DNA from: an uncultured bacterium
Lineage (GTDB): Bacteria; Zixibacteria; MSB-5A5; GN15; FEB-12
Assembly (NCBI GenBank): GCA_965372795.1
Contig: CBDVDR010000007.1
Coordinates: forward strand, 32,001-96,000
Length of the DNA stretch: 64,000 bases
Direction of reading: 5' to 3'
The notes beneath the pieces are model-generated. The model saw nothing but the letters and a program-made list of their open reading frames with translations, was not told the origin of the DNA and made no database searches. Of this stretch, positions 1,900-22,356 are shown piece by piece. Position 1 is the first letter of the stretch; each line of letters opens with the position of its first letter. The position numbers and the translations under genes were made by a program.

Positions 1900-1972
1900 T
1901 CCCCTGTAGCTCAGTTGGTAGAGCAGCTGACTGTTAATCAGCGGGTCGCAAGTTCGAGTCTTGCCGGGGGAG
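1900..1972 (+). tRNA. tRNA-Asn(GTT), CCA not encoded; integration target
   Basis: TCCCCTG/CGGGGGA acceptor stem, AGCTCAGTTGGTAGAGC D-arm, CTGA-CTGTTAA-TCAG anticodon arm, GTTCGAGTC T-loop. Confidence 0.97.
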
Positions 1973-3478
1973 CTTTGTTATACGATTTTGCGAACTCCCA
2001 CTAAACTCAGGTAATTCAAAGATATCCAATATAATTTTATCTTGATAAATAATCACATCTTTAAGAATACATTGGATAGCTTCAGCTTGGTCTTTTGGTC
2101 CCAAAGCTTCAAATGCAATGCTGAAATCCTGTAGACTCTTTCTAACTAAATCTGCATCGTATTCTTCAAAAGCTTGTTCATTGATTTTTCTAGTAATTTC
2201 TTCTAATTCAAAATTTAGAATTTTTAAATTCTTTTCTCTAAATTCAATTTCTTTTTCTAAACGATCTATACTAATTTTCCCAACACCAATGGCTTGAACA
2301 TATTTATCAATTTGAGCTTCTAATTCAGAAATTCTCAGTTTGATCTTTTTAGCTTCATCTTCCAAGGGACCAATTTGATTTTTTAAATCACCATTTAGCT
2401 TTTCAATTGATTTATTTAGATAGGTTTCATTTTGGGATAAATCATAAAGATCATTAATTACGATTTTTTCAATTTTATTCGCATTAAAACTCTTAATTTT
2501 ACATACTCGATTACTAAAATTCATCGTTTTAGTACAGCGATAATAAGGTATTCGATTTATTGAGTTATCCTTATTTCTTTTTTGAGTATAATGGGGTGTC
2601 ATAACAGAACCACAATCACTACATCTAATTAAACCTTTTAATAGGTAAACTTTTTCAATCCTTGAAGTAGGATGACTTCTTGTTGGGTGCATTAATTGAA
2701 TTCTCTTAAATAGAGTTTCATCAATTATTGCTTCGTGTTGCCCTTTATAAATCTTTCCCTTTGATCGAGTTTTTCCTATATACACAGGATTTCTTAAAAT
2801 ATGAGCTATTGCACTTTTACTCCATCTACCATTTGATCGTGGTAAATAACCATACTTTTCCAATTCTAAGCGTAAACTACTTAATGAAGGATTTATACCA
2901 AAGTTATTAAACATAAATTTAATAATAGGTTCTTCTTCTGGATTCGGTAGAAGCTTTTTATTTTCCCTCAAATATCCATAAGGAGGTATGCCACCATTCC
3001 ATAAACCTTTTTGTGCTCTCTGTTGCATCTTATCACGTGTTCGATCTGAAATCATTTCTCTTTCAAATTGAGCAAAATCTAAAAGTATATTCCGTAGCAA
3101 GCGACCAGTAGGATGATTAGTATCAATATTTTGTGTAATAGAAACGAAGTTTACATTATATTTATCAAATTCTTCCATTAGAGTATGGAAATCTTTAACT
3201 GATCGAGTCAATCTATCAATCTTATAAACTAAAACACAATTGATTTTTCCTTTTTGGAAATCTCTGATCATTTCTTGTAATGCAGGACGTTTAACAGAAT
3301 CACCAGAAAAACCACCTTCTACATATACACGATAAATCTCATAATTATCCTGACTTTTACAATATGCTTCAAGCTTTTCTTTCTGTGAATCTAGAGAGCT
3401 ATAATCATTCACCATTTGACTACGACTTGATACACGAGTATAAAGAGCACAAATTATTTTATTTTTTTTCTTATCCAT
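1934..3478 (-). CDS. Large serine recombinase (integrase); 3' end runs antisense through the tRNA
   Basis: YTRVSS catalytic motif, KIDRLTRS, recombinase domain, Zn ribbon (CSDCG...YYRC...C), coiled coil; tail LPRQDSNLRPAD is the tRNA antisense. Confidence 0.95.
   Translation of the reverse strand: MDKKKNKIICALYTRVSSRSQMVNDYSSLDSQKEKLEAYCKSQDNYEIYRVYVEGGFSGDSVKRPALQEMIRDFQKGKINCVLVYKIDRLTRSVKDFHTLMEEFDKYNVNFVSITQNIDTNHPTGRLLRNILLDFAQFEREMISDRTRDKMQQRAQKGLWNGGIPPYGYLRENKKLLPNPEEEPIIKFMFNNFGINPSLSSLRLELEKYGYLPRSNGRWSKSAIAHILRNPVYIGKTRSKGKIYKGQHEAIIDETLFKRIQLMHPTRSHPTSRIEKVYLLKGLIRCSDCGSVMTPHYTQKRNKDNSINRIPYYRCTKTMNFSNRVCKIKSFNANKIEKIVINDLYDLSQNETYLNKSIEKLNGDLKNQIGPLEDEAKKIKLRISELEAQIDKYVQAIGVGKISIDRLEKEIEFREKNLKILNFELEEITRKINEQAFEEYDADLVRKSLQDFSIAFEALGPKDQAEAIQCILKDVIIYQDKIILDIFELPEFSGSSQNRITKLPRQDSNLRPAD
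1951..1996 (+). repeat. att site 0 (attL-like): tRNA half + GA core (1970-1971) + P' arm TTGTTATACGATTTTGCGAACT
   Basis: The arm is an imperfect reverse complement of the arm preceding the core at 11732. Confidence 0.85.
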
Positions 3479-4001
3479 TTACATTTTGTAATGGTTTTGA
3501 TCTTGTGATCCACCATTCCTTCAATTTTGAACCTAATATCAATAGTAAGGAACCACCGCCTAAAATCAAAAGGCTAAGATGCATTCCTACAATAGAAGGA
3601 TTTTCTTTTATGTAATTCTCTGCTTCTTTAGATCCGTGGCATTTTAATAAAAGAGAATAACTCAATATCTCTGCTTGAAATTCAGCTTTGGAAGTCTCTA
3701 TTTTATCAATTGAATCAAGGTGTATCATACAGTGTACAATTTCATGAAAAATTGTGTAATCTCTATGAAATTTAGATTTATTTGAATTTATAAAAATTGT
3801 ATTTCGCCCTTCTACAGTAATCGCTTCACCACTAAAATTTTCTGGAAACTTTGAAGATCTATTAATTGGGATATTCAGATGTTTTGCAAGTTTATAGGGA
3901 GATTTAAATGCTTCATTTGGTAGATTATCAAAAGAATCATATAATTTACTATAAGGTTCAAGCAATAAGTTTCGCCAAAAATTTTTAACCTTTTCAGTCA
4001 T
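3471..4001 (-). CDS. ImmA/IrrE-family metallopeptidase (putative anti-repressor) with hydrophobic C-terminus
   Basis: IFIN...R.YTIFHEIVH...EFQAE motif; overlaps the repressor and integrase genes. Confidence 0.8.
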   Translation of the reverse strand: MTEKVKNFWRNLLLEPYSKLYDSFDNLPNEAFKSPYKLAKHLNIPINRSSKFPENFSGEAITVEGRNTIFINSNKSKFHRDYTIFHEIVHCMIHLDSIDKIETSKAEFQAEILSYSLLLKCHGSKEAENYIKENPSIVGMHLSLLILGGGSLLLILGSKLKEWWITRSKPLQNVNG

Positions 4002-4357
4002 CTATTTTTTGCCTTCTTTTTCGCAATATCATTAACAACCTTTAGTACATCTTTAAGTTCTTTTTCAGAAAGAGTACCTGCAGCTCTAAATAACCTAGCC
4101 ATATTTGGCTTGTTATCTGAGAATTTTCCTGCTTCGGCAATAAGTTCATTAGAGTCAATATTTAGTACTTCCGCTATATCTCTAATTTTCTCATTTGAAG
4201 GTGGTTTCTGAATTCCCCGAAGTATCCTAGATAAATAACTAGGATTTATATTTGTTTCTGATGCTAACTTTCTAAGGGACATTCCTTGCTTATCCATCTC
4301 AGATTTTATTTTATCGCTAAAAAACTTACTTTGCTGTTTTTCAATTTTTTCACCCAT
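3998..4357 (-). CDS. XRE-family HTH repressor (ImmR/CI-like)
   Basis: MSLRKLASETNINPSYLSRILRG HTH; likely start MGEK at 4357 with GGAGG upstream. Confidence 0.85.
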   Translation of the reverse strand: MGEKIEKQQSKFFSDKIKSEMDKQGMSLRKLASETNINPSYLSRILRGIQKPPSNEKIRDIAEVLNIDSNELIAEAGKFSDNKPNMARLFRAAGTLSEKELKDVLKVVNDIAKKKAKNR

Positions 4358-4397
4358 TAAGGCAAATCCTCCATCAATTTTAATCAATATCAATAAT

Positions 4398-4481
4398 GTA
4401 TCCCACATAGTCAACACTTTTTTTACTTTTTCTAAGAAATTATTTAAAATAGACAAAATATATGTTGACTATTTAGGATAC
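4398..4481. promoter_or_regulatory. Divergent promoters with paired 19-bp inverted boxes (putative operators)
   Basis: TGTTGACTATGTGGGATAC (minus, 4398-4416) vs TGTTGACTATTTAGGATAC (plus, 4463-4481), 17/19 identical, each containing a TTGACT -35. Confidence 0.65.
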
Positions 4482-4499
4482 GGTTAGTAACCTCTAGGC

Positions 4500-4736
4500 A
4501 TGAAACAAAAAATATTAAAATGCAGAATGTTAGAAATTAGAAAAAATTGGAAAGGCAAAGGCTTGAGTTTAGCACAACTCGCTAACAAGGTCGGTTTAAG
4601 TAGATCATATATTTGCAAGATAGAGCAGAATCATCGAAAGCCAAGTGGTGAGGTCATGCTAAGAATTGCAAATTGTCTTAATTGCCAAGTAGAAGAAATC
4701 TTTTATCTAACAGAAGAAAAAGTTGAGAACTTGTAA
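4500..4736 (+). CDS. Cro-like XRE HTH protein
   Basis: LSLAQLANKVGLSRSYICKIEQ; divergent from the repressor. Confidence 0.85.
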   Translation: MKQKILKCRMLEIRKNWKGKGLSLAQLANKVGLSRSYICKIEQNHRKPSGEVMLRIANCLNCQVEEIFYLTEEKVENL

Positions 4737-4753
4737 TTTTTTTAAGAAAGTAT

Positions 4754-4939
4754 GTGCCCTATATAAGGCACATAAAGCGAATGAATCAATTAAAAGTTGA
4801 AAGGAGATTTGTACCCATAGAAAAGGTAAAAGCTGAAGAGTTGTCTAACGCTTTTTGGCGAATCTTAGTCGGAGGTGCAATATCTGCAACCTCCATTAAA
4901 CAAAAAATGTCCCTCAAAAAGGAGAATTACAATGGATAA
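4754..4939 (+). CDS. Small hypothetical protein (candidate directionality factor; start may be 4781)
   Basis: Fills the operon between cro and the SpoVG-like genes and overlaps the next start; function is inference from position. Confidence 0.4.
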   Translation: MPYIRHIKRMNQLKVERRFVPIEKVKAEELSNAFWRILVGGAISATSIKQKMSLKKENYNG

Positions 4940-5231
4940 CGAAATAATCGTTGAATTAAGACAAATTGAAGACAATAAATTTTCAAAAGCTAAAGCAGAA
5001 ATAACTCTGCAAACTCCTTTTGGTGAAATTACAATAACTAGAATGAGAGTAGTTCACCAAGATGGTAAAGATCCTTGGGTGGCATTTCCCGAAATACCAT
5101 ATCAACCTAAGGATTCTTCTGAAAAACGATACTTGAAAGTTATTTTGCCAAGTAAAAGATTAAGAGCTGCAATATCAGAAGCAGTACTTAATAAATATGG
5201 GAGTATGAAATTCAATGAGAAATCATTCTGA
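4932..5231 (+). CDS. SpoVG-like nucleic-acid-binding protein
   Basis: AAGGAG RBS; KAKAEITL...ITITRMRVV...WVAFPE resembles SpoVG. Confidence 0.65.
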   Translation: MDNEIIVELRQIEDNKFSKAKAEITLQTPFGEITITRMRVVHQDGKDPWVAFPEIPYQPKDSSEKRYLKVILPSKRLRAAISEAVLNKYGSMKFNEKSF

Positions 5232-5532
5232 TATCACAGCTACAATTCATCTATTTAAAGATGCTCAGAATCTTAAAGCTTATGCTGATGTAGCTATTAA
5301 AACTCGAATAGGCGAAATTACTATTCGTAGATTTAAAGTGATTTCAACTAATTCTGGTAAATTGTGGGTTGCACTTCCCCAATTTGAGTATCAAAAAATT
5401 CTTTCAACTTCTTATGTGGATGCAATTGTAACCACTAAAAGAGCATTTCGCAGAATTCAAAGATTAGTTTTGAATGAATACAAAAAGAAGATTCATCTGG
5501 AAAATTCCCATGTTCAGGTTGATCGCTCCTGA
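5215..5532 (+). CDS. SpoVG-like nucleic-acid-binding protein (paralog)
   Basis: LKAYADV...ITIRRFKVI...LWVALPQ. Confidence 0.7.
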   Translation: MRNHSDITATIHLFKDAQNLKAYADVAIKTRIGEITIRRFKVISTNSGKLWVALPQFEYQKILSTSYVDAIVTTKRAFRRIQRLVLNEYKKKIHLENSHVQVDRS

Positions 5533-5559
5533 CATGGGGGGCGTACGGTTTGCCCTAAT

Positions 5560-5661
5560 GAGAGCAGCTTCAAGGCTGCTCTCTGACCGGTGCCCAAGCC
5601 GCCGGGGTCCTATTGGCGAATGCCAATGGGCGGCGGCAACAAAGCGATTGCCCGAAGGGCA
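5560..5661. other. GC-rich multi-hairpin region upstream of rep (candidate single-strand origin or structured RNA)
   Basis: Three hairpins: GAGAGCAGC/GCTGCTCTC; GCCGCC..CCTATTGGC-GAAT-GCCAATGGG..GGCGGC; TGCCC-GAA-GGGCA. Confidence 0.5.
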
Positions 5662-5738
5662 TACTGGCTTCTTGGTTGCTCTTGTTTCTGGCGTCATTTG
5701 TTGTCTATCTGTCAACTCGCAATTTTGGAGGAATTTAT

Positions 5739-6458
5739 ATGGCTTCTTCACTTGATATTAATAAGCATAATCGAAACAAGTTCTGCGGAAGATATTCACT
5801 AAAAGGATATTTAGAACAAAATGGAGAAAAGAAAATTAGATACGCAAGGCTCGGATGTAAAGGATGGAACTGTCAAATATGTGGACCTAGAAAAGCTTCT
5901 AAGTATCGTCATTCAATCAAAGAACAAGCTCTAAAGTTAAACTTAGATAGATTTCTTACATTAACTTTGGATCCCAAAAAATGCAAACCACATAATTCCT
6001 TGCCACATATAAAAAAGAGTTGGGCTAAATTCAGAATTTCTTTAAAAAGAAAATATGGTCATAGCATTTCATTTATCTGTATTGTGGAATTCCAAAAAAA
6101 TGGTTATGCACACTTACATATTCTTGTTGATCGTTTTATACCTCAAAAATGGATATCACACGCTTGGAATTCTGTAGGTGGAGGAAAGATCGCATTTATT
6201 GAGAGAGTTGAATTAAAGAGTATTGCTTATTATATAACTAAATATTTAACTAAAGATACAAACTTCAATAATTCGGGGAAGCGATACCGAAAATGCACAA
6301 CATCTAGAAATATTAAACTAAATTATCATAAGAAATCAGGGAAATGGGTAGTTATGACAGTTCCTATTGAAGAAATACATAATTCTTATAAGAAACAACA
6401 ATCGAAAGAACATAGAGATATGTCTGGGATGTTACATTGGTTTGAGATTTCAGTATGA
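5739..6458 (+). CDS. Rolling-circle replication initiator (HUH endonuclease)
   Basis: GGAGG at 5727 then ATG 5739; CxxxxCxxC, motif I FLTLT, motif II HLHIL, motif III YITKY. Confidence 0.85.
   Translation: MASSLDINKHNRNKFCGRYSLKGYLEQNGEKKIRYARLGCKGWNCQICGPRKASKYRHSIKEQALKLNLDRFLTLTLDPKKCKPHNSLPHIKKSWAKFRISLKRKYGHSISFICIVEFQKNGYAHLHILVDRFIPQKWISHAWNSVGGGKIAFIERVELKSIAYYITKYLTKDTNFNNSGKRYRKCTTSRNIKLNYHKKSGKWVVMTVPIEEIHNSYKKQQSKEHRDMSGMLHWFEISV
5750..5764 (+). other. Putative double-strand origin / nick site (CTTG^ATA)
   Basis: ACTTGATATTAATAA matches 15 consecutive nt of the phiX174 origin and lies inside the 5' end of rep. Confidence 0.7.
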
Positions 6459-6555
6459 ATTGGTATGTATTTAATTACCTTGACTTAAAAAGGATCAATA
6501 ATTACATTTATACAAACAGGACTAATTCATCTAGAAAAAACTAGAGGGGAATCAC

Positions 6556-7101: not shown

Positions 7102-7107
7102 TAAGTT

Positions 7108-7584
7108 ATGATTAAAAGACAAGTTTTTATAAGCTTCCATCATAAAAATGAGCAATCTGTAGTAGACGATTTTGTGAATGCATTCAGCACTTACTATGAC
7201 GTTTTTACTGACAGATCTCTTGATAGAGCTGCAGATAGCGATGATACTGAATACTTAAATCAAGTATGTAGAGATGCCATAGAAGGTACAAGTATAACAA
7301 TCGTAATAATAGGTACTGAAACTGGTAAAAGAAAATTTGTAGACTGGGAAATTAAACATACTTTATTAAAAAAACATGGACTTCTAGCTATATTTCGACC
7401 AAACCTAGAAGATCACCTTACAAATTTGCCGAATCGCTTAATTGACAACATAAATTCAGGATATTCAAATTGGTATAAATACCCATCTTCTCCAGAAGAT
7501 CTGCGATTAATGTTAGAAAAAGCATACAATATAAACAAAGCTTTGATAGACAATAGTAGAGAAAAAATGAAAAGAAACCTATAA
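7108..7584 (+). CDS. TIR-domain protein, ThsB/MTH538-like
   Basis: VFISFHH, TSITIVIIGTETGKRKFVDWEI (conserved Glu). Confidence 0.85.
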   Translation: MIKRQVFISFHHKNEQSVVDDFVNAFSTYYDVFTDRSLDRAADSDDTEYLNQVCRDAIEGTSITIVIIGTETGKRKFVDWEIKHTLLKKHGLLAIFRPNLEDHLTNLPNRLIDNINSGYSNWYKYPSSPEDLRLMLEKAYNINKALIDNSREKMKRNL

Positions 7585-7616
7585 TGTTCTTAACGATAAG
7601 CCATTTGAGTATCTAA

Positions 7617-8261
7617 ATGAATATAAATAATTCGTATAAGTGGGATATTTTTATTAGTTACCATAGATTACCTGCAATTGAAAAATGGTTAAAAGAAATA
7701 TTAATTCCTTTACTCGAACTTCATCTACCAAGTTCATTGGGAAGAGAAGCAGATATATTCTGTGATGATAATATAAAAACTGGTAATCATTGGCCAAATG
7801 AATTGAGCGATGCATTAGCATATTCTAAAGTATTGTTACCAATTTGGACTGTACTTTATTTTCATCGAGAATGGTGTTTAAAAGAGTGGTTAACTATGGT
7901 CAACAGAGAATCTAAATTAAATAGTCTTTCAAGGGAAGAGCAATTTACATTAATCAAGCCGATAAGACTACTTGATGGAAATAAATATCCTATATTTGCT
8001 CAAAATACACAAAGTTTAACCTGTACTAATTATTTTACAACTTCTGAATGTTATAAACAAACACTCGAGTATATAAACCTAGAGAAAAAGATAACAGATT
8101 GGTGTAATAATGACTTAGGACAATCGATAGTTACTGCACCACCTTGTCAAGAATTTTGGTTAAATGAAGAATTTTCTAGAAATTCAATAAGAGCTTTAGA
8201 ATCACAAAGTGAAATGCAACCTATTGATTTAAACACAACACCAAGATTAGGTAATGAATGA
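7617..8261 (+). CDS. TIR-domain protein (TIR_2-like)
   Basis: WDIFISY, IFCD..I..G..WP..L..AL..S, YFHREWCLKEW. Confidence 0.85.
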   Translation: MNINNSYKWDIFISYHRLPAIEKWLKEILIPLLELHLPSSLGREADIFCDDNIKTGNHWPNELSDALAYSKVLLPIWTVLYFHREWCLKEWLTMVNRESKLNSLSREEQFTLIKPIRLLDGNKYPIFAQNTQSLTCTNYFTTSECYKQTLEYINLEKKITDWCNNDLGQSIVTAPPCQEFWLNEEFSRNSIRALESQSEMQPIDLNTTPRLGNE

Positions 8262-10747
8262 GTAAAATAATTACATTCTATTCTTACAAAGGTGGAGTTG
8301 GTCGTTCCATGGCATTAGCAAACGTTGCGGTAAAACTATCAGGATTGGGACATAAAACTCTTATAATAGATTGGGATCTTGAAGCTCCAGGATTGGAATT
8401 CTATTTTAAAGAATATTTGGATTTAAGTAAAATAAAAACTAAACCAGGCATTATTGATATTTTAAAAGGAGATCATTCTACAAATTTAAAATCAACTAAA
8501 TGGACAGATTGCATCTCAACAATTAGTATTGATAATGCAACTCCATCCATACATTTTATATCATCAGGTAGCAACAAAGATAATTATTATAAAAAAGTAC
8601 AAGAATTTGATTTAGATAGTTTCTTTAATAAGAATAAAGGACAATCCCTGTTATACGAATTAAGAAATGAATGGTTAAATACTTATGACTTTATCCTCAT
8701 CGATAGTCGTACTGGCATTACAGACTATGGAGGAATTTGTACTATTCTTTTACCAGATGTAAACATACTATTTGTGACAACTAACGATCAAAGTCTTACA
8801 GGTAGTGAATATGTATTTGAAAAAGCGCATCAAATTAGAAAACAACTCCCTTACGATTATGAAAACATTATTTTTGTTCCAATATTAAGTAGATATGATG
8901 CTACTGAAGAATATCAAATTTCACAAGATTGGATAAAAAAAATAGATAAATCATTGTCTAAACTTTATGAGAAATGGACACCAAGGAACATTATAACAGA
9001 AGAACTAATTCAACAAACAAGCATTCCTTATATCCCATATTTTAGTTACGGTGAAAGACTTGCAGTTTTAGAAGAAAGTTCATCAATGACTAGATCTTTA
9101 AGCAATGCATATGAGAACCTTTCAGCATTAATTGCAAATAATTTCCAATATCTTGATGATATGATAAATAATCGAAGAAGTTTTTTAGCAAGAGCTTCAA
9201 AAATAAAAAATAAAGATGACTTAAGATTGAGACACACTGTTCCGCTTGTAAATTCTCCAGATTTAATCCATTTAAATTATGATAATCATCAAAAATGGTT
9301 AAGTACAAATGGTTCTGCAGGAGATCAAATGGATATAAAAAACAAAGAATTTTTAAATTTAGAACTTTTTGATCTTAATTTAGGCAAGTCCGAATTCAAC
9401 ACTTCAACAATGAAGAACTCCAATTTCACTTTTATTGATTTTTCTCATTCATCTTATAGATATAGTAATTTTTCGGGATCCAAATTTACATCTTCAAACC
9501 TATCATCTATAGATGGTTTTAATGCAATCTATATTAATGTCATATTTGATGGTGTAAGCGCTACACTATCCGATTTGTCTACTAGCAATTTAACAGATGC
9601 TATAATTAAAAACTCTGATTTTTTTCAATCAAATTTAGATGATTGTAATATGCAAAATTCCAAACTTCAAAATTCAAACTTTGATCTTGCTAGTTTTAAA
9701 AATTCTGATTTGAACTCTTCGAATCTCGAGCATTCAAATTTTTATAGATCTAATTTTGCAAATGCAAACCTTAGATCATGCATTTGTTATGATGCAGATT
9801 TTAAAGGGGCTAACTTCAGTGATGCTAATCTAGCATATGCAAAGGGATTAAAAGAATCTCAACTAAAAATGACAATATTAGATTTTGCAAAATTACCTGA
9901 TCATATAAATTTTAGTGATTCACTAAATTCTTTTGGTAAAAATTTAAAAAGTGTACAGAGTTCATTTTGGATAACATCTATAATTGCACTTACTTATTTG
10001 TTTGCTCTTATAAATTACTTAACAATCGGTAACTCTAAAGAGTTTATTATTTTTTTACCAAATCTCCAAAATTTCGCCATTCCACAAATAATTGCAATTA
10101 TAATTTCCATGTACTAGTCACAAAGTTTATGGGATAAAATATCAAAATTACCATGTAGTTTTCCTGATGGTAAAACTCTTCATGAAAAAGGAGATTCTAT
10201 TTTTTTTGTAGGAAATATTTTTCCTACGCTCCAGAGAAATAACATAAGAGCTAATCCATTTAGGAGTATTCTATTCATAAGTTTGTATTGGGGATCTACA
10301 TCTATAATCTATGTTTCTGGTGCTTTTGTCATTTATACATATCCTAATTTTTATCCAGATACTAATTTCACTTTTTCCTTTATAGTTGCAATTTCATTAA
10401 GTTTAATAGGAATTTTATCATATTTTTATTCTAATATAAAGTTAGCTAAAAATAATAGACCAAGTTTTATTTGTTCTCACGAAGTAGCATTATTTAATTT
10501 GCCAAAAAAAATGTTTAAATATGAAATGTTAGATTTATTAGATAATTATGGAAGAATCTTAAGTTTAAGAAAAACAATTAGTATCAATGATGATATAGTG
10601 TGGAGTGTAAGGTTAGAGAGTAATTTTCAGGTACAAAAAGTGATAAAAAGTCTTGATCGTAGTAATTTTCATAATAAAGTGATAAGAGCTATTGGTATAC
10701 CGATTGGAGAGGAATTATCTAAAACTCTATATAATAGAGTCAAATAA
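8258..10747 (+). pseudogene. ParA-like (KGGVGR) ATPase + pentapeptide repeats + TM segments + RRM-like tail; one in-frame TAG at 10115-10117
   Basis: YSYKGGVGRS deviant Walker A, DWDLEAPG, DSRTG; pentapeptide repeats; the frame stays open after the TAG (SQSLWDKISKLPCSFPDGKTL...) and joins ORF 10283-10747. Confidence 0.7.
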
Positions 10748-10810
10748 TTTCATGATACACGATCTAAGGATTATATCTTAGCTTACCATAATTGATAGAA
10801 AAGTTGTCTA

Positions 10811-11729: not shown

Positions 11730-11814
11730 ATAGTTCGCAATTCGTACAATACGGGGAGCTTAAGTTTTTCTACTCAACAACTTACTAAAATTCAATTTGT
11801 ACGGATTGCGAACT
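11730..11814 (+). repeat. att site 1: arm + GA core (11756-11757) + IHF-like box + displaced inverted arm
   Basis: AGTTCGCAATTCGTACAA (11732-11749) and TTGTACGGATTGCGAACT (11797-11814) form a 17/18 inverted repeat; the 32 bp at 11730-11761 are identical to 12579-12610. Confidence 0.9.
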
Positions 11815-12606: not shown

Positions 12607-12667
12607 GCTTTATTAATTCTCTTTCATATCAACAACTTACAACATTACAGATTGTACCTTTTCGACT
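12579..12667 (+). repeat. att site 2: arm + GA core (12605-12606) + IHF box + degenerate arm
   Basis: ATAGTTCGCAATTCGTACAATACGGGGAGCTT; TATCAACAACTTA at 12627-12639 fits WATCAANNNNTTR; TTGTACCTTTTCGACT. Confidence 0.88.
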
Positions 12668-12754
12668 AATCAATTTCTAGAAAATCTGAAACTTATATAA
12701 TAATCTTATTTTGTAAGTAGGAACGAAAATTAATCTTCCATCTGTTAGAAATAA

Positions 12755-12982
12755 TTGTTTTTCCTGTAGTTTGTGAACTGGTTCATCTAGGAAGTAGTAT
12801 TCACCCTCGGTCGCTGCATCGAGCATCCCGATAATGTTAAGCTGGGCTGAATTTCCTGCACCCTAAGGTCCCATGACGGTGACGAAGTCACCATCGTAGA
12901 TTTCCAATTTAACATGCCTGAGAACGTATGTGTTCACGCCACCGTTCTTATAGCTCTAGGTTATGTTGTCAAGTCTGATCAT
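12755..12982 (-). pseudogene. Truncated ABC ATP-binding gene
   Basis: MIRLDNIT*SYKNG...DFVTVMGP*GAGNS..LNIIGMLD...GEYYF; two TAG, broken Walker A, cut off near the cassette end. Confidence 0.8.
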
Positions 12983-13015
12983 AATGTCAATATCCTTCGA
13001 AAGTAATTCTTTGTT

Positions 13016-13086
13016 CTATTCATGTCGTATCGCGTCAATCGGATTGGCGATTAACGCGACGTTATGGACAGTCGCCTAGTGTGCAT
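13016..13086 (-). pseudogene. C-terminal remnant of an ABC permease paralog
   Basis: ALIANPIDAIRHE* matches the permease C-terminal motif. Confidence 0.6.
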
Positions 13087-13094
13087 AATTTTGT

Positions 13095-15470: not shown

Positions 15471-15494
15471 GAATGTACACTCACTTTCTAAAAC

Positions 15495-15662
15495 CTATTC
15501 ATATTTTAGTGATTCAATCGGATTAGACGAAGCTGTCTTTATCGCTTGATAGCTATCAACAAAGCGAGCAATGCCGTTAGCCAGCCCGACTATATTGAGT
15601 AGAGTAATACCGTCCTGACGACGGGTCGATCTCAACGCGATCTTGAGAAAGTTCTTAAGCAT
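15495..15662 (-). pseudogene. 55-aa internally deleted permease paralog (N- and C-termini fused in frame)
   Basis: MLKNFLKIALRSTRRQDGITLLNIVGLANGIARFVD-SYQAIKTASSNPIESLKYE*. Confidence 0.75.
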
Positions 15663-16341
15663 GACGAGTCTTTATGTCTTCTGTTACAACAGCGCCATCG
15701 AAAAGGTTGATGGTACGACTGCAGTAGTCAGCGAATGCCTGAGAATGAGTGACCATTACGATCGTAGTGCCTTCTTCATTGAGTTTCGTCAGGCAGGTCA
15801 TCACATCCTGTCCGTGGGCTGAGTCAAGATTGCCGGTTGGTTCATCGGCGAGAATCAGTCTTGGATTGGCAACAACTGCTCTTGCAACAGCCACACGTTG
15901 TTGTTGACCACCTGATAACTGTTGTGGGAAATGCTTTGAACGGGCAATGATCTCAAACTCTTTAAGTGCCTTGTTGACGCGTGTTCTTCTCTCAGATGCG
16001 GCTATCCCGAGATAGAGAAGAGGCAGTTCGACATTCTCAAAGATGTTCAGTTCATCAATCAGGTTAAAATTCTGAAAGACAAACCCGATGTTGTTCTTGC
16101 GAAGACTGGCTCTTTGACGTTCGGTATATTTGGAGACTTCAGTTCCGAGCAAATGATATTCTCCCCCGGTTGGGTTATCCAGAAGTCCAAGAACATTCAG
16201 CAGAGTTGATTTGCCACAACCAGATGGTCCCATAATTCCGACAAACTCACCTTCTGCGATGTGGATTCCAATATCGTTTAGTGCCGTTGTCTCGATGTCT
16301 TCGGTGCGGTAAGTTTTTTGCAGGTTGACGGTACGAATCAT
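15655..16341 (-). CDS. ABC transporter ATP-binding protein (MacB/LolD-like)
   Basis: GPSGCGKS, LSGGQQQR, ILADEPTGNLD; start MIRTVNL with AGGAG RBS. Confidence 0.93.
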   Translation of the reverse strand: MIRTVNLQKTYRTEDIETTALNDIGIHIAEGEFVGIMGPSGCGKSTLLNVLGLLDNPTGGEYHLLGTEVSKYTERQRASLRKNNIGFVFQNFNLIDELNIFENVELPLLYLGIAASERRTRVNKALKEFEIIARSKHFPQQLSGGQQQRVAVARAVVANPRLILADEPTGNLDSAHGQDVMTCLTKLNEEGTTIVMVTHSQAFADYCSRTINLFDGAVVTEDIKTRHA

Positions 16342-16378
16342 GGTTATTACTCCTTTTAACATTGTCATTATATTTTTC

Positions 16379-17629
16379 CTATTTAAATACGAGTTGGTCA
16401 ATTTCGCCAAAAGTTTCATAGGAGGAAGTAACCACTTTTTCCCCCGGTTTAAGACCTTCAAGTACTTCGTAGTAGATTGAATTTGAACGCCCCAATCGGA
16501 TAACACGTTTTTTGGCCAGATTGTCTGTCTCATCTACAACATAAACCCATTGACCACCCGTGCTTTGCCAGAAAGCTCCACGCTTAATCAGAATTGCCTC
16601 GGAGGAGCCACCCAGATTAAGGCGGATACGAAGTGTTTGGCCACGTCGGATTCCTTTTGGAGCACTTCCGATAAATTGCAGGTCCACTTCAAAGCGACTG
16701 TTAACAACCTCAGGGTAAATTTTCTCAACCAGCAGTTCAATGTCTTCATCATCAAAAGTAGAGGTTGCTTTTTGTCCGACCTGTACTCTTGAGAGATAAT
16801 GCTGGTCCACCTGGACTCTCGCTTTGAAACCTACCGGGATATCTATTCTCCCCAACTGTTCACCACGATTCTTAGTTTGTCCAATTTCTGCATTCAACGA
16901 AGTCAACTGCCCGTCTATCGGGGCTCGTAACGTAAGATTATCGAGTTTTTGTTTTACCATATCAAAATTGTCTTCCATGCGTGTCAATCCCTCTTGAAGT
17001 TGACCAACCTGAGTCTCCCTGAAAACAGAATCTTGTCGAGCATTTTCAACTGTTAACTCAAACTTAGCGGCGTAGTACTCAAATGTCTCTTTGGCTTCAT
17101 CGAACATTCTCACCGAGATTAACTCCTTTGTCAGAAGCGCTCGAAATTCTTCGTAAGTACGCTTTTTCTGAGATAATTGGTACTTGAGATCAAGCAGTTG
17201 TTCGGCCATTCGAAGCCGATTCTGCTGCATAGCTAAACGAGTGTTTCGTAAGTTATTCGATTGCTGAAAAAGCTCTGCTTCACGAAACATGATATCCAAA
17301 AGAAGATTAGTATTAGCCAGTCGCAGAATAGGGTCGCCTTTGTTGACATAAGAACCTGCCTCAACAAATACCGAGTCCACCTGTCCACCTTCAGTTGCAT
17401 CCAGAAATATCGTCCGAAGAGGAATCACTGTGCCTGTTTCAGGAATGAACTCCTGAAATTCACCTACGGTTACATCTGAAATAGAAATACGTTCGATATC
17501 GACACTGAGTCTGGAACTGTGATCTCCAAAAATTAGATTGTATAGAATTAAAATAGTCGCCAGTCCACCCACTGATAAGTAAGCAATCATTTTGATTGTC
17601 CAGAATTTCCGTTCGATCAGTCTATCCAT
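16379..17629 (-). CDS. Efflux periplasmic adaptor (HlyD/MFP family)
   Basis: N-terminal TM, lipoyl-like EGGQVDSVFVE.G..V.KGDPI, long helical hairpin. Confidence 0.88.
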   Translation of the reverse strand: MDRLIERKFWTIKMIAYLSVGGLATILILYNLIFGDHSSRLSVDIERISISDVTVGEFQEFIPETGTVIPLRTIFLDATEGGQVDSVFVEAGSYVNKGDPILRLANTNLLLDIMFREAELFQQSNNLRNTRLAMQQNRLRMAEQLLDLKYQLSQKKRTYEEFRALLTKELISVRMFDEAKETFEYYAAKFELTVENARQDSVFRETQVGQLQEGLTRMEDNFDMVKQKLDNLTLRAPIDGQLTSLNAEIGQTKNRGEQLGRIDIPVGFKARVQVDQHYLSRVQVGQKATSTFDDEDIELLVEKIYPEVVNSRFEVDLQFIGSAPKGIRRGQTLRIRLNLGGSSEAILIKRGAFWQSTGGQWVYVVDETDNLAKKRVIRLGRSNSIYYEVLEGLKPGEKVVTSSYETFGEIDQLVFK

Positions 17630-17724
17630 ACGAGAGATGTCACTCATACACTATTTCTCACAATCTATGTTGCAGTTCAATATTTTTAAGACGGCCAAAT
17701 AGCGTCTCGGTTGCTAAAAGACAT

Positions 17725-17833
17725 TACAATAATCGTGCCAGTTCAAGTAAGTCGTTGTTATACAACAAAACTAATGGTATTGCGGTGGGGTTTTACTGCC
17801 CGCTTATGGAGGTTTGCTGTACGAATGCGTACA
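17725..17833 (-). promoter_or_regulatory. Sigma54 promoter with IHF-like site and activator UAS for the exporter operon
   Basis: TGGCACGATTATTGTA (-24/-12, 17740-17725); TAACAACGACTTA IHF-like box; TGT-N10-ACA palindrome at 17818-17833. Confidence 0.7.
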
Positions 17834-18006
17834 CTAAATCCCTTGCCCCAAAGCAACTATCGGATTACTTTGTATGTAAGTCACTGTTAATCAACGATCT
17901 GAATTGTTTTCTCGTGATGGTATGTTTTCTGCTTTCATCTTTACATTGAAAGCAACAACGATTAGAAATGCACAAGAAGTGAAAGTGACAATGGAGTGTG
18001 TGACGA

Positions 18007-19392
18007 ATGAGCGAATTGAATTTTAGTTCAAGCCGAATCCTTGTAGTCGATGACGACCCTGATGTGCTTTTGGCGGCACGACTTCTGCTTAAGCAGCATG
18101 TCGCCGAGGTAGTCACCGAACCTGATCCCAATCGAATCCAAGAACATCTTGGCACGAGCGATTTTGATATCGTGATGTTGGATATGAATTTTACACGGGA
18201 TCAAACGAGCGGTGAAGAGGGGCTCCATTGGCTCAAGCAGATTTTGAAATGGGATCCCGAGATGGTCGTAGTAATGATCACTGCATACGGTGACGCCGAA
18301 ATTGCCGTTCACACGATCAAGAGCGGAGCGACTGATTTTGTTCTAAAGCCGTGGCAAAATGAAAAGCTGCTTGCCACGATGTTCTCCTCTCTGAAGCTTC
18401 ACCACTCACAAAAAGAGGTTGAGAATCTTAAGCAGTCTCGACGACAGTTAAGTGCCGACATGGATCAGCCGTTTGGGGATTTTATTGGTTCAAGTAAGGC
18501 AATGAAAGAGGTGATCGCCACTATCGCAAAGGTGGCGGTAACCGACGCGAACGTTTTGATAACAGGGGAGAACGGGACTGGTAAAGAATTGGCCGCAAGG
18601 GCAGTTTACCGACGATCGCTTCGTGCTGGTGAAGTATTTGTCAAAGTTGATATGGGATCAATAGCCGAGACGCTGTTTGAATCGGAGCTGTTTGGTCATG
18701 TAAAGGGAGCTTTCACCGATGCGAGAGAAGATCGCGCAGGCAGATTTGAGATTGCATCAGGGGGGACGCTTTTCCTCGACGAAATCGGAAATACTCCGAT
18801 CACACTACAGGCTAAACTATTGACCGTTTTGCAAAGTCGCCAGGTTACCAGAGTAGGTTCAAATAGTACAACACCAATTGATATTAGACTAATATCAGCC
18901 TCGAATATGCCGCTCGAGGAATTGGTCGAAAATAAGCTCTTTCGCCAGGATTTGCTCTATCGAATCAATACCATAGAGATTGTTTTACCGCCACTCAGAG
19001 AGAGGATTGATGATATTGATGATCTGGCAGAGTATTATCTCAAGATGTATGCGGGGAAATATAAGAAGAGCGTGAATGGTATCACGCCTGCTGGAATTAA
19101 TAAGCTCAAATGCCAACCCTGGCGCGGCAACATAAGAGAGCTTCAGCATACGCTCGAACGAGCGGTTATAATGAGCGAGTCGGATCAGTTGACACCGGAT
19201 GATTTCCCGTTTAGTCAAAGTGGTGATTTGGCTGACTCAAAACTTATGGCGAGTCATAATTTGGAAAAGATTGAGCGGACTATAATTGTTCGCGTACTCT
19301 CTTTGAATGACAACAATATCAGCCATGCTGCCGAAGTATTGGGACTCACACGCACATCACTTTATCGTCGTATGCAAAAACATGGTCTTTAA
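18007..19392 (+). CDS. Sigma54-dependent response regulator (NtrC family)
   Basis: Receiver domain, GENGTGKE, GAFTDA, C-terminal Fis HTH. Confidence 0.95.
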   Translation: MSELNFSSSRILVVDDDPDVLLAARLLLKQHVAEVVTEPDPNRIQEHLGTSDFDIVMLDMNFTRDQTSGEEGLHWLKQILKWDPEMVVVMITAYGDAEIAVHTIKSGATDFVLKPWQNEKLLATMFSSLKLHHSQKEVENLKQSRRQLSADMDQPFGDFIGSSKAMKEVIATIAKVAVTDANVLITGENGTGKELAARAVYRRSLRAGEVFVKVDMGSIAETLFESELFGHVKGAFTDAREDRAGRFEIASGGTLFLDEIGNTPITLQAKLLTVLQSRQVTRVGSNSTTPIDIRLISASNMPLEELVENKLFRQDLLYRINTIEIVLPPLRERIDDIDDLAEYYLKMYAGKYKKSVNGITPAGINKLKCQPWRGNIRELQHTLERAVIMSESDQLTPDDFPFSQSGDLADSKLMASHNLEKIERTIIVRVLSLNDNNISHAAEVLGLTRTSLYRRMQKHGL

Positions 19393-20728
19393 GCATTTTA
19401 GAATACAAATAATCTCGCGCGTTCTCATTTTATGTGTGACTATTTTGGCTGCAGCCTGGCTCCTGAGTGCAACTGAAAAGTATGCCACGACCGGGATGGT
19501 TATCCTATTGTTCATTCTACAGGTGATCTTTCTCATTCGATTTGTTGAAAAAACAAATCACACGATGGCAGAGTTCCTGCAAGCGATTGAATACGACGAT
19601 TTTACTCAGTCTTTCGGGAATGTTGCAAGCGGCAAATCGTTCGACGAGTTGAATCAGGCCTTTGTTAAAGTTTCTGCGAATTTCCGAGAGGTTCGTCTGG
19701 GGAGGGAGGAAAATTACAGATACTTGCAGACGGTCGTTCAGCATGTTGGAGTCGGCATGGTAGCATTTCAGGAGAGCGGAGAGGTCGAACTTTTTAACTC
19801 TACCGCCAAGAAGATACTGCAATTGGCTTCATTGAAGAATATCAATGACCTTAAAATGAAAAGTCCGGAACTTTTAGAACGTATTAAATTTCTCAATCCG
19901 GGAGAGCGCGATCTGGTTCGAGTCACAATTGATAAAAACTTGGTACAACTGTCTCTTTTTATGACTATCCTTAGGATGCGCAATCGCAAAATAACTCTGG
20001 TGTCGTTTCAGAATATCTCCGCTGAGCTTAACGAAAAAGAGATGCAGGCATGGCAGAATCTTATCAGGGTGTTCACTCACGAAATAAAAAACTCTTTGAC
20101 GCCGATCAGTTCTTTGGCTGGAACTATAGAAACTCTCTTAGTTCCAATTACGTCGCAACTAAACGTGAAGAATCGGGAGAGCATTACTGATATCTCCGAG
20201 GCTCTTACGACAATCAAGAGTCGTTCAGAAGGCTTACATGAGTTTATTAATGCTTATCGTGATCTGACAAACCTTCCCCAACCTGTGTTTGAATCGTTCA
20301 AGGTGACCTCTATGTTTGAGCGGGTTGGACAGCTTGTGAAAGATCAAATTCAATCTGGGGGGATTAATTACTGTGTAGAACTATCGAATCAAACCCTCTC
20401 GGTTACAGCAGACAGCAAAATGATCGAACAGGTGTTGATCAATCTGATCCTTAACTCAATCCAGGCTTTGAATGGATGTGAAAAACCGAAATTAAAAGTG
20501 TGTGGGTTTGTTGATTATCAGAATCGAGTAACAATTACTGTCGAAGACAATGGCCCGGGGATTGCGAATACGGCGATTGACAAAATATTCGTACCGTTTT
20601 TTACTACTAAGAAAACCGGCTCAGGAATTGGCCTAAGTCTGTCAAGGCAAATCATGCGTCTTCACAAAGGTGAACTAACTGTTTCGTCTGAACCAGATAA
20701 ACGCACAATCTTAACCATGCGCTTCTAA
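19382..20728 (+). CDS. Sensor histidine kinase (NtrY-like)
   Basis: Two TMs, PAS-like region, THEIKNSLTPI H-box, DNGPG and GSGIGL boxes. Confidence 0.93.
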   Translation: MVFKHFRIQIISRVLILCVTILAAAWLLSATEKYATTGMVILLFILQVIFLIRFVEKTNHTMAEFLQAIEYDDFTQSFGNVASGKSFDELNQAFVKVSANFREVRLGREENYRYLQTVVQHVGVGMVAFQESGEVELFNSTAKKILQLASLKNINDLKMKSPELLERIKFLNPGERDLVRVTIDKNLVQLSLFMTILRMRNRKITLVSFQNISAELNEKEMQAWQNLIRVFTHEIKNSLTPISSLAGTIETLLVPITSQLNVKNRESITDISEALTTIKSRSEGLHEFINAYRDLTNLPQPVFESFKVTSMFERVGQLVKDQIQSGGINYCVELSNQTLSVTADSKMIEQVLINLILNSIQALNGCEKPKLKVCGFVDYQNRVTITVEDNGPGIANTAIDKIFVPFFTTKKTGSGIGLSLSRQIMRLHKGELTVSSEPDKRTILTMRF

Positions 20729-21109
20729 GATGACCATTTGAGCCACAATTGATTATCTGCTTAGGAATTCTCTGCCAGCATAATCACGACAAGATGCAAT
20801 AAAATCTACCATAAAGCCTGTGCTATTTAAATACCGTTTCAACATTCTTGAATTCAGTTTCCATCTGACATAAAGAAAAATGTGTCTTAGATTTCAACTA
20901 CACTTGTCCGGATTGTTTGAAGACATTCAATTCTTTATTCCTAAATTTCATTATATCAACTATGCTTATGCCGCAGTTCTAAATTAGTCCACGATGGCCC
21001 GCCATTATATTTATTATTTCCGAATAGTGGTTCAAATCCTTTTGCTTGCCATATGTGTCCCTAATTTAAAAGGATATTGAAGTAATAACATTGTTAGAAT
21101 ACATCAAAA

Positions 21110-21195
21110 AGTTGCGAAATTCGTCTAATTGGGGGAGCTTTATAATCATAAAAATTTGAACCACTTACACAATAGCTTTATCGCACATTCGAACT
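21110..21195 (+). repeat. att site 3: arm + GA core (21135-21136) + IHF-like box + degenerate arm
   Basis: AGTTGCGAAATTCGTCTAATTGGGGGAGCTT ... TGAACCACTTAC ... TTCGAACT. Confidence 0.8.
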
Positions 21196-21291
21196 TTAAG
21201 CCACTCTTTCTCGTTATTCCACTATCAGTTAAGGAAAGTTGTATAGCTTTTTAACAGCTTGTACTTTTACTCTTTAATCCTGTTCAATAAA

Positions 21292-21308
21292 TAGACTTGA
21301 CAAGTCTA
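21292..21308 (+). promoter_or_regulatory. TTGACA -35 inside a perfect 8-1-8 palindrome (putative operator)
   Basis: TAGACTTG-A-CAAGTCTA. Confidence 0.5.
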
Positions 21309-21388
21309 CGCATTTTTTTAATTTAACTTTGTACTTATAAAATACTACTCAATTTTTTATAAATCGAAAACAGATGAAAGGTTTTAAT

Positions 21389-22159
21389 ATGAAGTACTTA
21401 TTTATTCTTGTTGTTCTTTGCCTGCTGATAATTGGCTGTTCTGATAATCCCGTCAAAAGCAGTAACGGTTTTATTTCCGTAGAATCCTTTGATGCTCCTG
21501 CTCCGGAAGGCATTGAGCATTTATATTTACATGTTCTTGAAGTATCAACTCATCATTCAGATGACGGTTGGATAGTTTTATCGGAACCTGATACGGTCAT
21601 CGATTATATGGAATTGATAAACGGTATAACTGTTTTGTTAGCCGATAGCGTTTCTCTCCCTGTTGGTGACTACGAGCAAATGAGACTGTTGTTGTCTGAC
21701 TCCAATGAAATTGTTATTGAAGGCACAACTTATGACTTAACTACGCCAAGTGCGCAACAATCCGGGATTAAACTCAATCTGAATTTTTCTGTTGAAGAGA
21801 ACCAACTGATAGAAATCTATGTTGATTTTGATATTTCAAAATCAGTTATCAGTGCCTCATCAAAGTATATACTCACTCCGACATTCCGTGCTTTCAAACA
21901 AATTTTATCTGGCACTATTGCCGGAACAGTCGTTGATGCTCTTGGCGACCCGCTTGAAAATATAACGATTGACGTTGCTGGAGTAGAATATGCAACATCA
22001 ACAATTACTGATGCTGAAGGCAATTATCTTTTGATACTTCCTGAAGATACCTATGATATTACTGCAACAGCTGAAAATCTGACAGCTAATAAGACTTATA
22101 CCGGCGTAGAGTTAAATCCTCTTGATGAATTGACAGGATTTGATTTTATAATGGAATAA
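21389..22159 (+). CDS. DUF4382-like lipoprotein with a C-terminal carboxypeptidase-regulatory-like Ig domain
   Basis: Lipobox IIGC; DAP..., GDYEQMRL, TPSAQQSGIKL, VDFDISKS; GTIAGTV...G.Y. Confidence 0.8.
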   Translation: MKYLFILVVLCLLIIGCSDNPVKSSNGFISVESFDAPAPEGIEHLYLHVLEVSTHHSDDGWIVLSEPDTVIDYMELINGITVLLADSVSLPVGDYEQMRLLLSDSNEIVIEGTTYDLTTPSAQQSGIKLNLNFSVEENQLIEIYVDFDISKSVISASSKYILTPTFRAFKQILSGTIAGTVVDALGDPLENITIDVAGVEYATSTITDAEGNYLLILPEDTYDITATAENLTANKTYTGVELNPLDELTGFDFIME

Positions 22160-22177
22160 TGATAAAAATAATAGATC

Positions 22178-22206
22178 AAACCGCCTGATTTTCAGGCGGT
22201 TTTTTT
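22178..22206 (+). terminator. Intrinsic terminator
   Basis: ACCGCCTGA-TTT-TCAGGCGGT followed by a T run. Confidence 0.85.
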
Positions 22207-22325
22207 GTCAATTAATATAAAAGCTAAACTCTTTGATTGTTGATCAGGTTACCTATAAGAGAAGAGCAAACTTCATCCACAATTTCTTAGATTTTCTCAA
22301 AAAAACTGCTGATCGTTGCTCAACC

Positions 22326-22356
22326 AGTTACAAAACTCGTCCAATTGGGGGAGCTT
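22326..22356 (+). repeat. att site 4 (distal attR-like end of the array), GA core at 22351-22352
   Basis: AGTTACAAAACTCGTCCAATTGGGGGAGCTT; not followed by the IHF box or inverted arm. Confidence 0.8.

Follow-up and report, generated by a model that had tools for sequence, protein, structure and literature searches.

In this study, we describe a tandem array of gene units that stands behind a tRNA-Asn gene in a 64-kb stretch of DNA (the window, that is, the whole stretch analysed) from contig CBDVDR010000007.1 of an uncultured bacterium of the phylum Zixibacteria. The units are bounded by exact copies of the 3' end of the tRNA gene, the first of them carries a gene for a large serine recombinase, and the array is plausibly a stack of integrative elements built at this one site.

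A row of units behind the single tRNA-Asn gene

The anchor of the array is tRNA-Asn(GTT) (1900..1973, + strand; ARAGORN), which is the sole tRNA-Asn among the 46 tRNAs of the 3.35-Mb assembly. A 9-nt core, GGGGAGCTT, occurs in five exact copies in the window, all on the + strand (starts 1967, 11753, 12602, 21132, and 22348), whereas the chance expectation from 100 dinucleotide-preserving shuffles was a mean of 0.23 and a maximum of 2. Core 0 is the 3' end of the tRNA gene, and all five cores are identical to that end. The start-to-start spacings of 9786, 849, 8530, and 1216 bp define units 1–4. That is, tandem units stand at the 3' end of one single-copy gene with a direct repeat of the gene end bounding each, and one array holds both a recombinase gene adjoining the left attachment site (attL) and recombinase-less units. 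An earlier note, made from the letters of this DNA, had placed the five cores here and proposed one recombinase-bearing unit and three recombinase-free units of 849, 8530, and 1216 bp, two of them with one gene each. The core positions and spacings agree with this, and units 2 and 4 each contain a single non-nested open reading frame (ORF) of at least 60 aa.

The recombinase gene lies on the - strand (1934..3478, 514 aa). Its product, designated LSR (large serine recombinase), was assigned from Pfam, PHROG, and PDB relatives: it matches PF00239 Resolvase (9.3e-42, residues 11-159), PF07508 Recombinase (5e-16), PF13408 Zn_ribbon_recom (2e-14), and the integrase family PHROG 95 (7e-126), and its PDB relatives are TP901-1 (catalytic domain, 8e-24), the C-terminal region of A118 integrase (1e-10), and SPbeta integrase (residues 32-478). 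Residues 13-18 form the motif Y-T-R-V-S-S, in which we take the serine to be the nucleophile. Judged by these domain matches, LSR is an intact large serine recombinase with catalytic, C-terminal, and zinc-ribbon domains all present. The stop codon of the gene falls within tRNA-Asn, and the last 10 codons cross the core and enter the tRNA; therefore, the attachment site lies within the 3' end of the LSR gene. In the excised form, the arm before core 1 would prolong the reading frame, for a computed product of 520 aa. The two forms are identical to residue 504, after which the integrated form has 10 residues and the excised form 16 (1934-1973 and 11700-11761). No second Resolvase-domain protein that could be a DsiA- or CcrA-like partner was found by Pfam among the 23 ORFs scanned (window 1-26760). 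The source genome carries two more large serine recombinase genes elsewhere (G000:C10:64701-65978 and G000:C4:23609-24985), which are 27-29% identical to LSR.

Units 2–4 (all given on the + strand) differ widely in size and content. Unit 2 (11762..12610, 849 bp core to core) holds one ORF (11916-12548, 210 aa) with no family match; in the ESM Atlas, its nearest clusters consist of hypothetical proteins about as long (score 0.96). Unit 3 (12611..21140, 8530 bp) encodes, according to Pfam, an exporter consisting of a MacB-type permease, an ABC ATPase, and an HlyD-type fusion protein on the - strand, and a sigma-54 response regulator and a histidine kinase on the + strand. Unit 4 (21141..22356, 1216 bp) holds one gene (21374-22159) for a lipoprotein-like product with DUF4382 and CarboxypepD_reg domains (Pfam). 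The orientation of the unit genes is mixed. We found no recombinase remnant in units 2–4: tblastn with LSR against the window matched the LSR gene only, and Pfam found no recombinase domain in the ORFs of these units among the same 23. The GC content is 24-31% in units 1–2 (24-26% in unit 2) and 42-48% in unit 3, compared with 38% for the whole genome; units 1–3 are foreign in composition. The earlier note had named, as an outcome that would refute it, units 2–4 being fixed and syntenic in relatives that lack the repeats. The unit-3 permease does not fit that outcome: in 22 of the 25 relatives searched, the same-genus genome among them, nothing matches it at E <= 1e-80, and its best match is 43% identical and comes from another family.

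Directly after their cores, units 2–4 share a conserved left end (repeat family D6). In unit 2 it spans 11762..11820 (+ strand) and consists of an AT-rich stretch, CAACAACTTAC at 11775, and then TTGTACGGATTGCGAACT; the homologous ends are 12611-12670 in unit 3 and 21141-21200 in unit 4. The CAACAACTTAC-like motif starts at 11775, 12630, and 21158 in the three units and is followed about 18 nt on by a TTCGAACT-like motif. These left ends also align with left ends from four other genomes (G015, G097, G132, and G136; labels of our genome set). A motif scan of unit 1 found no internal copy of the left-end motif, which would be expected if units arise by deletion from an internal site.

The remaining genes of unit 1 are phage-like in part. 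An ImmA/IrrE metalloprotease (3471-4001, - strand), a cI-like helix-turn-helix (HTH) protein (3998-4456, - strand), and a Cro-like HTH protein (4500-4736, + strand), all recognised by Pfam and PHROGs, form a predicted phage-like repressor switch (3471..4736). They are followed on the + strand (4875..6458) by two SpoVG-like ORFs and a rolling-circle-type replication initiator (5613-6458) (PF04026, PF23343, and phrog_3419); the first SpoVG-like ORF scores below the Pfam curated cut-off. Farther on (7108..10117, + strand), Pfam and PADLOC indicate two TIR proteins, one of them ThsB-like, and a ParA-like ATPase that carries pentapeptide repeats. The PADLOC models matched there are ThsB, PDC-M50B, and PDC-M28B, and the region is a candidate TIR-based defence cluster, possibly a variant one; no ThsA-like partner was seen beside the unit-1 TIR genes. 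Two further ORFs (10283-10747, + strand; 10811-11566, - strand) have no match in Pfam, PADLOC, or PHROG. No capsid, conjugation, or mobilisation gene was seen in unit 1. From its genes and ends, we consider that unit 1 (1976-11761) is an intact element of 9.8 kb, probably mobile still, bounded by attL and a right attachment site (attR).

Attachment sites within the array

Each of cores 1–4 is directly preceded by a related arm of 21-22 nt. The arm is AGTTCGCAATTCGTACAATAC before both core 1 and core 2, and arm plus core are identical over 30 nt at these two places; it is AGTTGCGAAATTCGTCTAATTG before core 3 and AGTTACAAAACTCGTCCAATTG before core 4 (both type A). Arms 3 and 4 have 19 and 15-16 of 32 ungapped positions in common with arms 1 and 2, and their subtype is the one common in other genomes, not that of the window recombinase. 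The left junction, attL (1951..1996, + strand), is composed of a B arm, which is the T-arm plus the 3' strand of the acceptor of tRNA-Asn, core 0 (1967-1975), and a P' arm, TGTTATACGATTTTGCGAACT. Junction 1 (11732..11761, + strand) consists of the P arm AGTTCGCAATTCGTACAATAC and core 1 and forms the right end of unit 1. Unit 2 ends in the same P arm plus core 2 (12581-12610), and units 3 and 4 end in type-A P arms plus core 3 (21110-21140) and core 4 (22326-22356), respectively.

Joining arm 1 to the arm after core 0 reconstitutes a site of 51 bp, TCGT-10-GA-10-ACGA, with the outer motifs AGTTCGCAA and TTGCGAACT. To the null of 5000 random pairs from the window, with a mean score of -7.2, the inverted similarity of the two arms compares at a score of 7, which 0.1% of the pairs reach. 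The 26 nt to the right of core 0, when reverse-complemented, align to the left arms of all four downstream cores (null fractions of 0.001, 0.001, 0.002, and 0.009 for arms 1, 2, 3, and 4). By the same measure, the right arms of cores 1–4 mirror no left arm (null fractions 0.07-0.98; 0.07-0.63 for cores 1–3). From this arrangement, junctions 1–4 are identified as attR-type (P arm, core, other sequence), not as attP-type, in which both P arms would flank the core. Because the right arms of cores 1–3 mirror no left arm, a circle made from one unit would lack the P' half-site, and the recombinase-less units therefore cannot integrate alone. Independent re-insertion of unit circles by a canonical enzyme is unlikely.

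The symmetry of the reconstituted site places the presumed crossover at the central GA. The AGTTCG of the tRNA T-arm starts 19 nt before this GA, and the AGTT of the P arms starts 24-25 nt before it. For serine integrases, PMC3783163 describes a zinc-ribbon motif that is shifted 5 bp towards the centre in attB relative to attP, and the spacing on the tRNA side matches this published shift. An attP generally measures about 50 bp and has imperfect inverted half-sites around a 2-bp crossover; the site here is of this form at 51 bp, with the crossover position deduced from the symmetry. The earlier note had predicted a GA-symmetric site of ~51 bp from the same two arms, the 19-bp against 24-25-bp spacing, and the agreement with serine-integrase geometry. 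Comparison with random pairs, counting, and PMC3783163 bear out these three points, the last of them on the tRNA side. In the sequence after core 4, no B' motif was recognisable. That sequence (22357..22390, + strand) reads by eye as a short A/T-rich hairpin plus a T run and is likely the native trailer of the tRNA, i.e., the B' side; a terminator scan did not call the hairpin after core 4. A trailer resembling it also stands 3' of a type-A arm at metagenome locus L070.

Arrays in related genomes and metagenomes

We searched for further sites with the arm-plus-core pattern AGTT-N6-7-TCGT-NN-AAT-NN-GGGGAGCTT. In the source genome, the pattern occurs in the array only, besides one match with 2 mismatches on another contig. 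Of the order's other genomes, 159 were searched and 9 carry it, with 0 matches for the reversed control pattern. Five of the nine genomes have at least two sites in a single orientation (G015, G088, G097, G100, and G136), and in the first three the array begins at tRNA-Asn, as in the window. The sites lie at the tRNA, +1193, and +5566 in G015; at the tRNA, +2027, and +3704 in G088, which has two single-gene units (an FG-GAP/dockerin and an LVIVD/BACON protein); and at the tRNA, +1517, and +1578 in G097, where one unit measures only 61 bp and the conserved left end directly follows the tRNA. G100 has four sites. G136 has eight over ~55 kb, and several of its units carry one gene for a large protein with a dockerin or a type IX secretion system (T9SS) tail. 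A similar array with another arm type is present in G016.

Several details of these arrays were noticed in passing. At the two sites 61 bp apart in G097 (L092), both arm and core are complete and the arm subtypes differ, making an 'empty' unit. No intact tRNA-Asn lies within 24 kb upstream of the G136 array (G136:C1, ~3.91-3.97 Mb; L095/L096/L116), and one internal G136 site carries an 18-nt fragment of the tRNA-Asn 3' end. In a 4.4-kb recombinase-less unit of G015 (L044, ~3100-4400 in tRNA-first orientation), there are tandem repeats of ~276 bp, seen as staggered self-matches between G015 and the metagenome loci L067 and L073. RRM_1 genes with 69-82% nucleotide identity occur in either orientation in units of G097, G100, G159, and G136 (L092, L093, L098); since their flanks and arm types differ, the gene is shared and did not move as a unit.

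Recombinase genes are scarce in these arrays. G015, G088, G097, G100, and G016 have none, and only one of the five relatives' arrays, that of G136, has a large serine recombinase, which is 27% identical to LSR and whose gene end overlaps a core. A Pfam scan of 61 ORFs of the relatives' arrays, together with tblastn, found neither a serine nor a tyrosine recombinase and, by Pfam, one Mutator-family transposase; the scan did not take in the recombinase-bearing unit of G136, a 760-aa ORF spanning two loci, or ORFs below 80-90 aa. In G136 too, no right arm other than the one on the recombinase side mirrors left arms; it mirrors two, at distances of 18 kb and 45 kb. In G024, a third recombinase lineage (24% identical) overlaps tRNA-Asn, with an attR-type site 17.2 kb downstream. 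A serine recombinase gene overlapping the core is thus present in three arrays (the window, G136, and G024), and a tally from the listed sites gives a recombinase in roughly 3 of 23 units in 8 arrays. Two other recombinases, in G017 and G033 (34-35%), lie 1.3 kb downstream of tRNA-Asn, behind a native terminator, and others are not near a core; none of these was used as evidence.

The surroundings of tRNA-Asn were compared as well. Many genomes of the family show synteny on the left flank, where a PDZ protease gene precedes tRNA-Asn. In G001, which is of the same genus, hydrogenase-maturation genes follow the tRNA and the contig ends 1.5 kb on. At five tRNA-Asn loci from several genera (L028 in G024, L029 in G035, L007 in G001, L030 in G021, and L042 in G010), a conserved hairpin and then a TGTATGTGGGA-like sequence follow the tRNA. 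In G024 and G035 the tRNA is overlapped by a different serine recombinase gene, whose 3' end contains this hairpin; the 1.5 kb available in G001 holds no recombinase.

The pattern was also found in 13 metagenome stretches, each locus being viewed over 2 kb per side. Read by eye, the likeness to the arm goes beyond the fixed letters in 11 and is doubtful in the other 2; 2 of the 11 are the same sequence as G015. In 20 junctions, taken from the nine other genomes, metagenome contigs, and the window after dropping two G015 duplicates and one doubtful stretch, the 11 arm positions not fixed by the pattern average 1.36 bits, compared with 0.33 in the 40 nt upstream and 0.29 in the 20 nt downstream. 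This profile marks the arm as a conserved site with sharp limits. In one metagenome, two contigs are alike at the junction and on its downstream side (84.6% over 104 nt) and differ upstream. At locus L069, a degenerate sequence resembling the 3' half of tRNA-Asn, with its own GGGGGAGCC end, follows the core and is possibly a displaced tRNA end. A 16-letter form of the arm pattern had 14 matches in viral_contigs, which we judged by eye to be chance matches because they are without the outer AGTT motif.

Proposed accretion at tRNA-Asn, its rivals, and known systems

We propose, with a probability of roughly 0.58, that the array consists of integrative elements which large serine recombinases stacked in tandem at a single tRNA-Asn through accretion and cis-mobilisation. 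Serine-recombinase elements would land at the 3' end of tRNA-Asn one upon another. LSR, together with a predicted directionality factor, would pair attL with attR1; attL could pair equally well with attR2, which has the identical P arm, and less certainly with attR3 and attR4. Unit 1 would then leave alone or take downstream units along, units left behind would end up joined directly to the tRNA, and units would be gained or dropped between hosts. Units 2–4 would keep only an attR-type right junction and the conserved left end, which is not a P' arm. The model fits the persistence of arrays without a recombinase, the left end that follows the tRNA in G097, and the identity of arms 1 and 2. According to PMC3783163, serine integrases recombine attP with attB only, or attL with attR when a directionality factor is present, and the model respects this rule. 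The idea in the earlier note that one large serine recombinase stacks and excises the cargo stands in part. LSR at attL, the matched attP, the lack of a recombinase in units 2–4, and the recurrence of recombinase-less units elsewhere agree with it, whereas separate stacking and excision, with every unit forming a circle by itself, is not supported: the right arms of cores 1–3 mirror no left arm and arms 3 and 4 are of the other subtype.

Several observations weigh against the accretion model. By sequence comparison, the type-A arms 3 and 4 are of a different subtype from the recombinase's own arms, perhaps that of another recombinase lineage. The model leaves the conserved left ends of units 2–4 unexplained. 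No directionality factor was recognised. The right-flank gene (DUF4153) is near tRNA-Asn in no relative and lies elsewhere; since the right flank is not syntenic in relatives, there is no empty site to compare. A close relative of LSR was not found: across 284 other genomes of the phylum no match exceeds 40% identity, genome_contigs gave one unrelated weak match, and viral_contigs gave none. The attL-type pattern of LSR matched the source genome and one further, probably chance, place, with 3 matches for the reversed control. With neither a closely related LSR nor an attL-type site elsewhere, the relatives' arrays cannot be tied to the window LSR. The assembly contained no attP or emptied-site junction. 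Only one public sequencing run shared words with the left flank (share 0.06), and its contigs, which cover mainly the tRNA plus scattered low-identity pieces, contained no junction of the source organism. A contig of that run joining 21140 to 12627 with 17 other letters between was rejected as a unit-3 circle; we read it as a homologous arm/core/left-end junction of another organism.

The same facts can be read as the remains of past insertions, in which units 2–4 decayed from successive elements at tRNA-Asn, their junctions are unused, and only unit 1 is mobile, on its own. This reading, which we hold to be doubtful though deserving of serious weight, would account for arms 3 and 4 being unlike LSR's own arms, for the loss of every recombinase remnant from units 2–4, for the four of five relatives' arrays that lack a recombinase, and for the lack of polymorphism or circle evidence, and decay to recombinase-less elements is described as the usual origin of tandems in PMC5704250 and bioRxiv 10.1101/2020.12.28.424599. 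However, random decay should not spare both ends of a unit, and across genera the arms are far better kept than their flanks, the left ends are conserved too, arms are complete even in the 849-bp unit and the 61-bp unit of G097, and arms 1 and 2 agree at all 30 nt. We give hardly any credence to the view that the repeats are not recombination sites at all and reflect chance, an intergenic repeat family, or tRNA 3' ends displaced by tyrosine-integrase islands. As in such islands, the core is identical to the tRNA 3' end, and the 18-nt tRNA-Asn fragment at one G136 site would suit it, but the chance expectation of 0.23 copies, arms that cannot be aligned to the tRNA past the 9-nt core and yet are mutually conserved, the lack of a tyrosine recombinase in any unit scanned, the serine recombinase genes overlapping the core in three arrays, and the confinement of the arm pattern to the array in the source genome all argue against it.

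A bolder reading, that of the earlier note, is a true cassette system, in which each recombinase-less unit leaves as its own circle and a serine recombinase, acting in trans, puts it back at the tRNA, functionally much as in an integron. Single-gene units with a conserved junction module of arm, core, and left end (here, in G088, and in G136), the two contigs of one metagenome that share a junction and its downstream side (84.6%, 104 nt) and differ upstream, and the RRM-domain gene recurring in units of four genomes point that way. Nevertheless, we regard it as unlikely: the internal right arms mirror no left arm, which would leave a unit circle without a canonical attP; serine integrases are limited, in the same account of their site rules (PMC3783163), to attP x attB or to attL x attR with a directionality factor; the orientation of the unit genes is mixed; the RRM gene common to four genomes stands beside different flanks and arm types and was not moved as a unit; and none of the 13 metagenome stretches (7 whole contigs) showed the terminal overlap of at least 15 nt looked for as a sign of circular cassette contigs. 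A variant that we likewise consider improbable takes arm, core, and left end as a two-sided module, with a family of serine recombinases shuffling units in trans at tRNA-Asn throughout this phylum-level lineage; the left end (CAACAACTTAC ... TTCGAACT) would serve as a second binding site, of an unconventional kind, through which unit circles could recombine. If true, the two-sided module would be the serine-recombinase counterpart of the integron, with many units being single genes for secreted or surface proteins.

Returning to the accretion model, its closest published counterpart is the set of ssrA islands of Dehalococcoides, with the serine recombinase DsiB (McMurdie et al. 2011; PMC3146451). 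In that paper, the islands are described, like the units in the window, as standing in tandem downstream of a stable-RNA gene present in one copy, with a direct repeat of that gene's 3' end as the boundary of each; the conserved motif just upstream of each repeat, which cannot be aligned to the gene, is the counterpart of the P arm; a serine recombinase gene (~540 aa there) lies on the reverse strand adjoining attL, as here; and many islands lack an integration module and are proposed to be cis-mobilizable by accretion. The two differ in the target (tRNA-Asn here, tmRNA there), the length of the repeat (9 nt here, 20 there), the host lineage, and the cargo. Unit 1 was not seen to carry a DsiA-like small serine recombinase or other integration-module genes, and the conserved left ends of units are a feature of the arrays described here.

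The composite islands of the staphylococcal cassette chromosome (SCC), such as SCCmec with ACME (arginine catabolic mobile element) or the copper and mercury resistance element (COMER), are similar in other respects. As outlined in PMC7029739, serine recombinases insert them at the 3' end of one gene, which is essential there, short direct repeats separate the modules of the array, and modules without a recombinase are mobilised by that of a neighbour. Experiments described in the same source have shown that SCCmec excises alone or, more rarely, together with neighbouring ACME. In SCC, the target is the protein-coding gene rlmH (orfX), two recombinases, CcrA/CcrB, or CcrC, are at work, and inverted repeats stand at both ends of a module, whereas the mirrored right arm of the window is found in the recombinase unit only; excision is experimental for SCC, and the window array is known from its sequence alone. 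We place the Enterococcus cassette chromosome (PMC6222049) beside the SCC composite islands as a kindred system.

Other systems are more distant. Cis-mobilizable elements (CIMEs) in tandems of integrative conjugative and integrative mobilizable elements are, in the description in PMC5704250, recombinase-less elements with att sites beside an incoming element at a gene end, from which composites excise. They were described mainly for conjugative elements and tyrosine integrases, with attL and attR both retained, whereas the recombinase-less units of the window show recognisable arms of the attR type only, and no conjugation or mobilisation genes were seen here. Tycheposons of Prochlorococcus, as presented in bioRxiv 10.1101/2020.12.28.424599, resemble the window in being tRNA-anchored islands with replication genes and cargo. 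In their islands, newcomers push older elements inward, and degenerate remnants and partial tRNAs lie scattered. Of these elements, 910 of 937 use tyrosine recombinases and have partial-tRNA flanks, whereas the array here has a serine recombinase, a repeat of only 9 nt of the tRNA, and arms not derived from the tRNA. Integrons share with the window a row of short units, some with a single gene, a repeated recombination site, and one fixed anchor, but the window has no IntI (no Phage_integrase match in the 23 ORFs), no common promoter, and no recognisable folded site of the attC type (the internal junctions lack inverted symmetry), its genes are of mixed orientation, and its units reach 8.5 kb with operons. 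The integron-like character without IntI or attC suggested by the earlier note is supported only in part: neither feature was seen, and the genes do not share one orientation. Its choice of tycheposons as the nearest analogue is not borne out; because the Dehalococcoides and SCC islands are nearer and already published, its claim of novelty was too strong.

The way of stacking foreign genes is already known; what is new here is the tRNA-Asn target, the host lineage, and the unexplained conserved left end. A paper on tRNA-Asn arrays in this lineage was not found in a literature search that was not aimed at that question. The TIGER/Islander pipeline needs an integrase for each island (PMC12424338), so the recombinase-less units of such arrays would go unlisted. 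Stacking by serine recombinases behind a single-copy stable-RNA gene would not be limited to Dehalococcoides (tmRNA) and, at rlmH, staphylococci, and would extend to tRNA-Asn and a little-studied environmental lineage. With one intact recombinase, a matched attP, two attR sites with identical arms, and two of a related subtype, the window offers an unusually clean test case for how widely one serine integrase accepts alternative attR partners, the step on which it depends whether the gene blocks next to the element move with it. In this lineage, the gene blocks that the arrays carry include defence genes, transporters with their regulators, and large secreted proteins with dockerin domains or T9SS tails.

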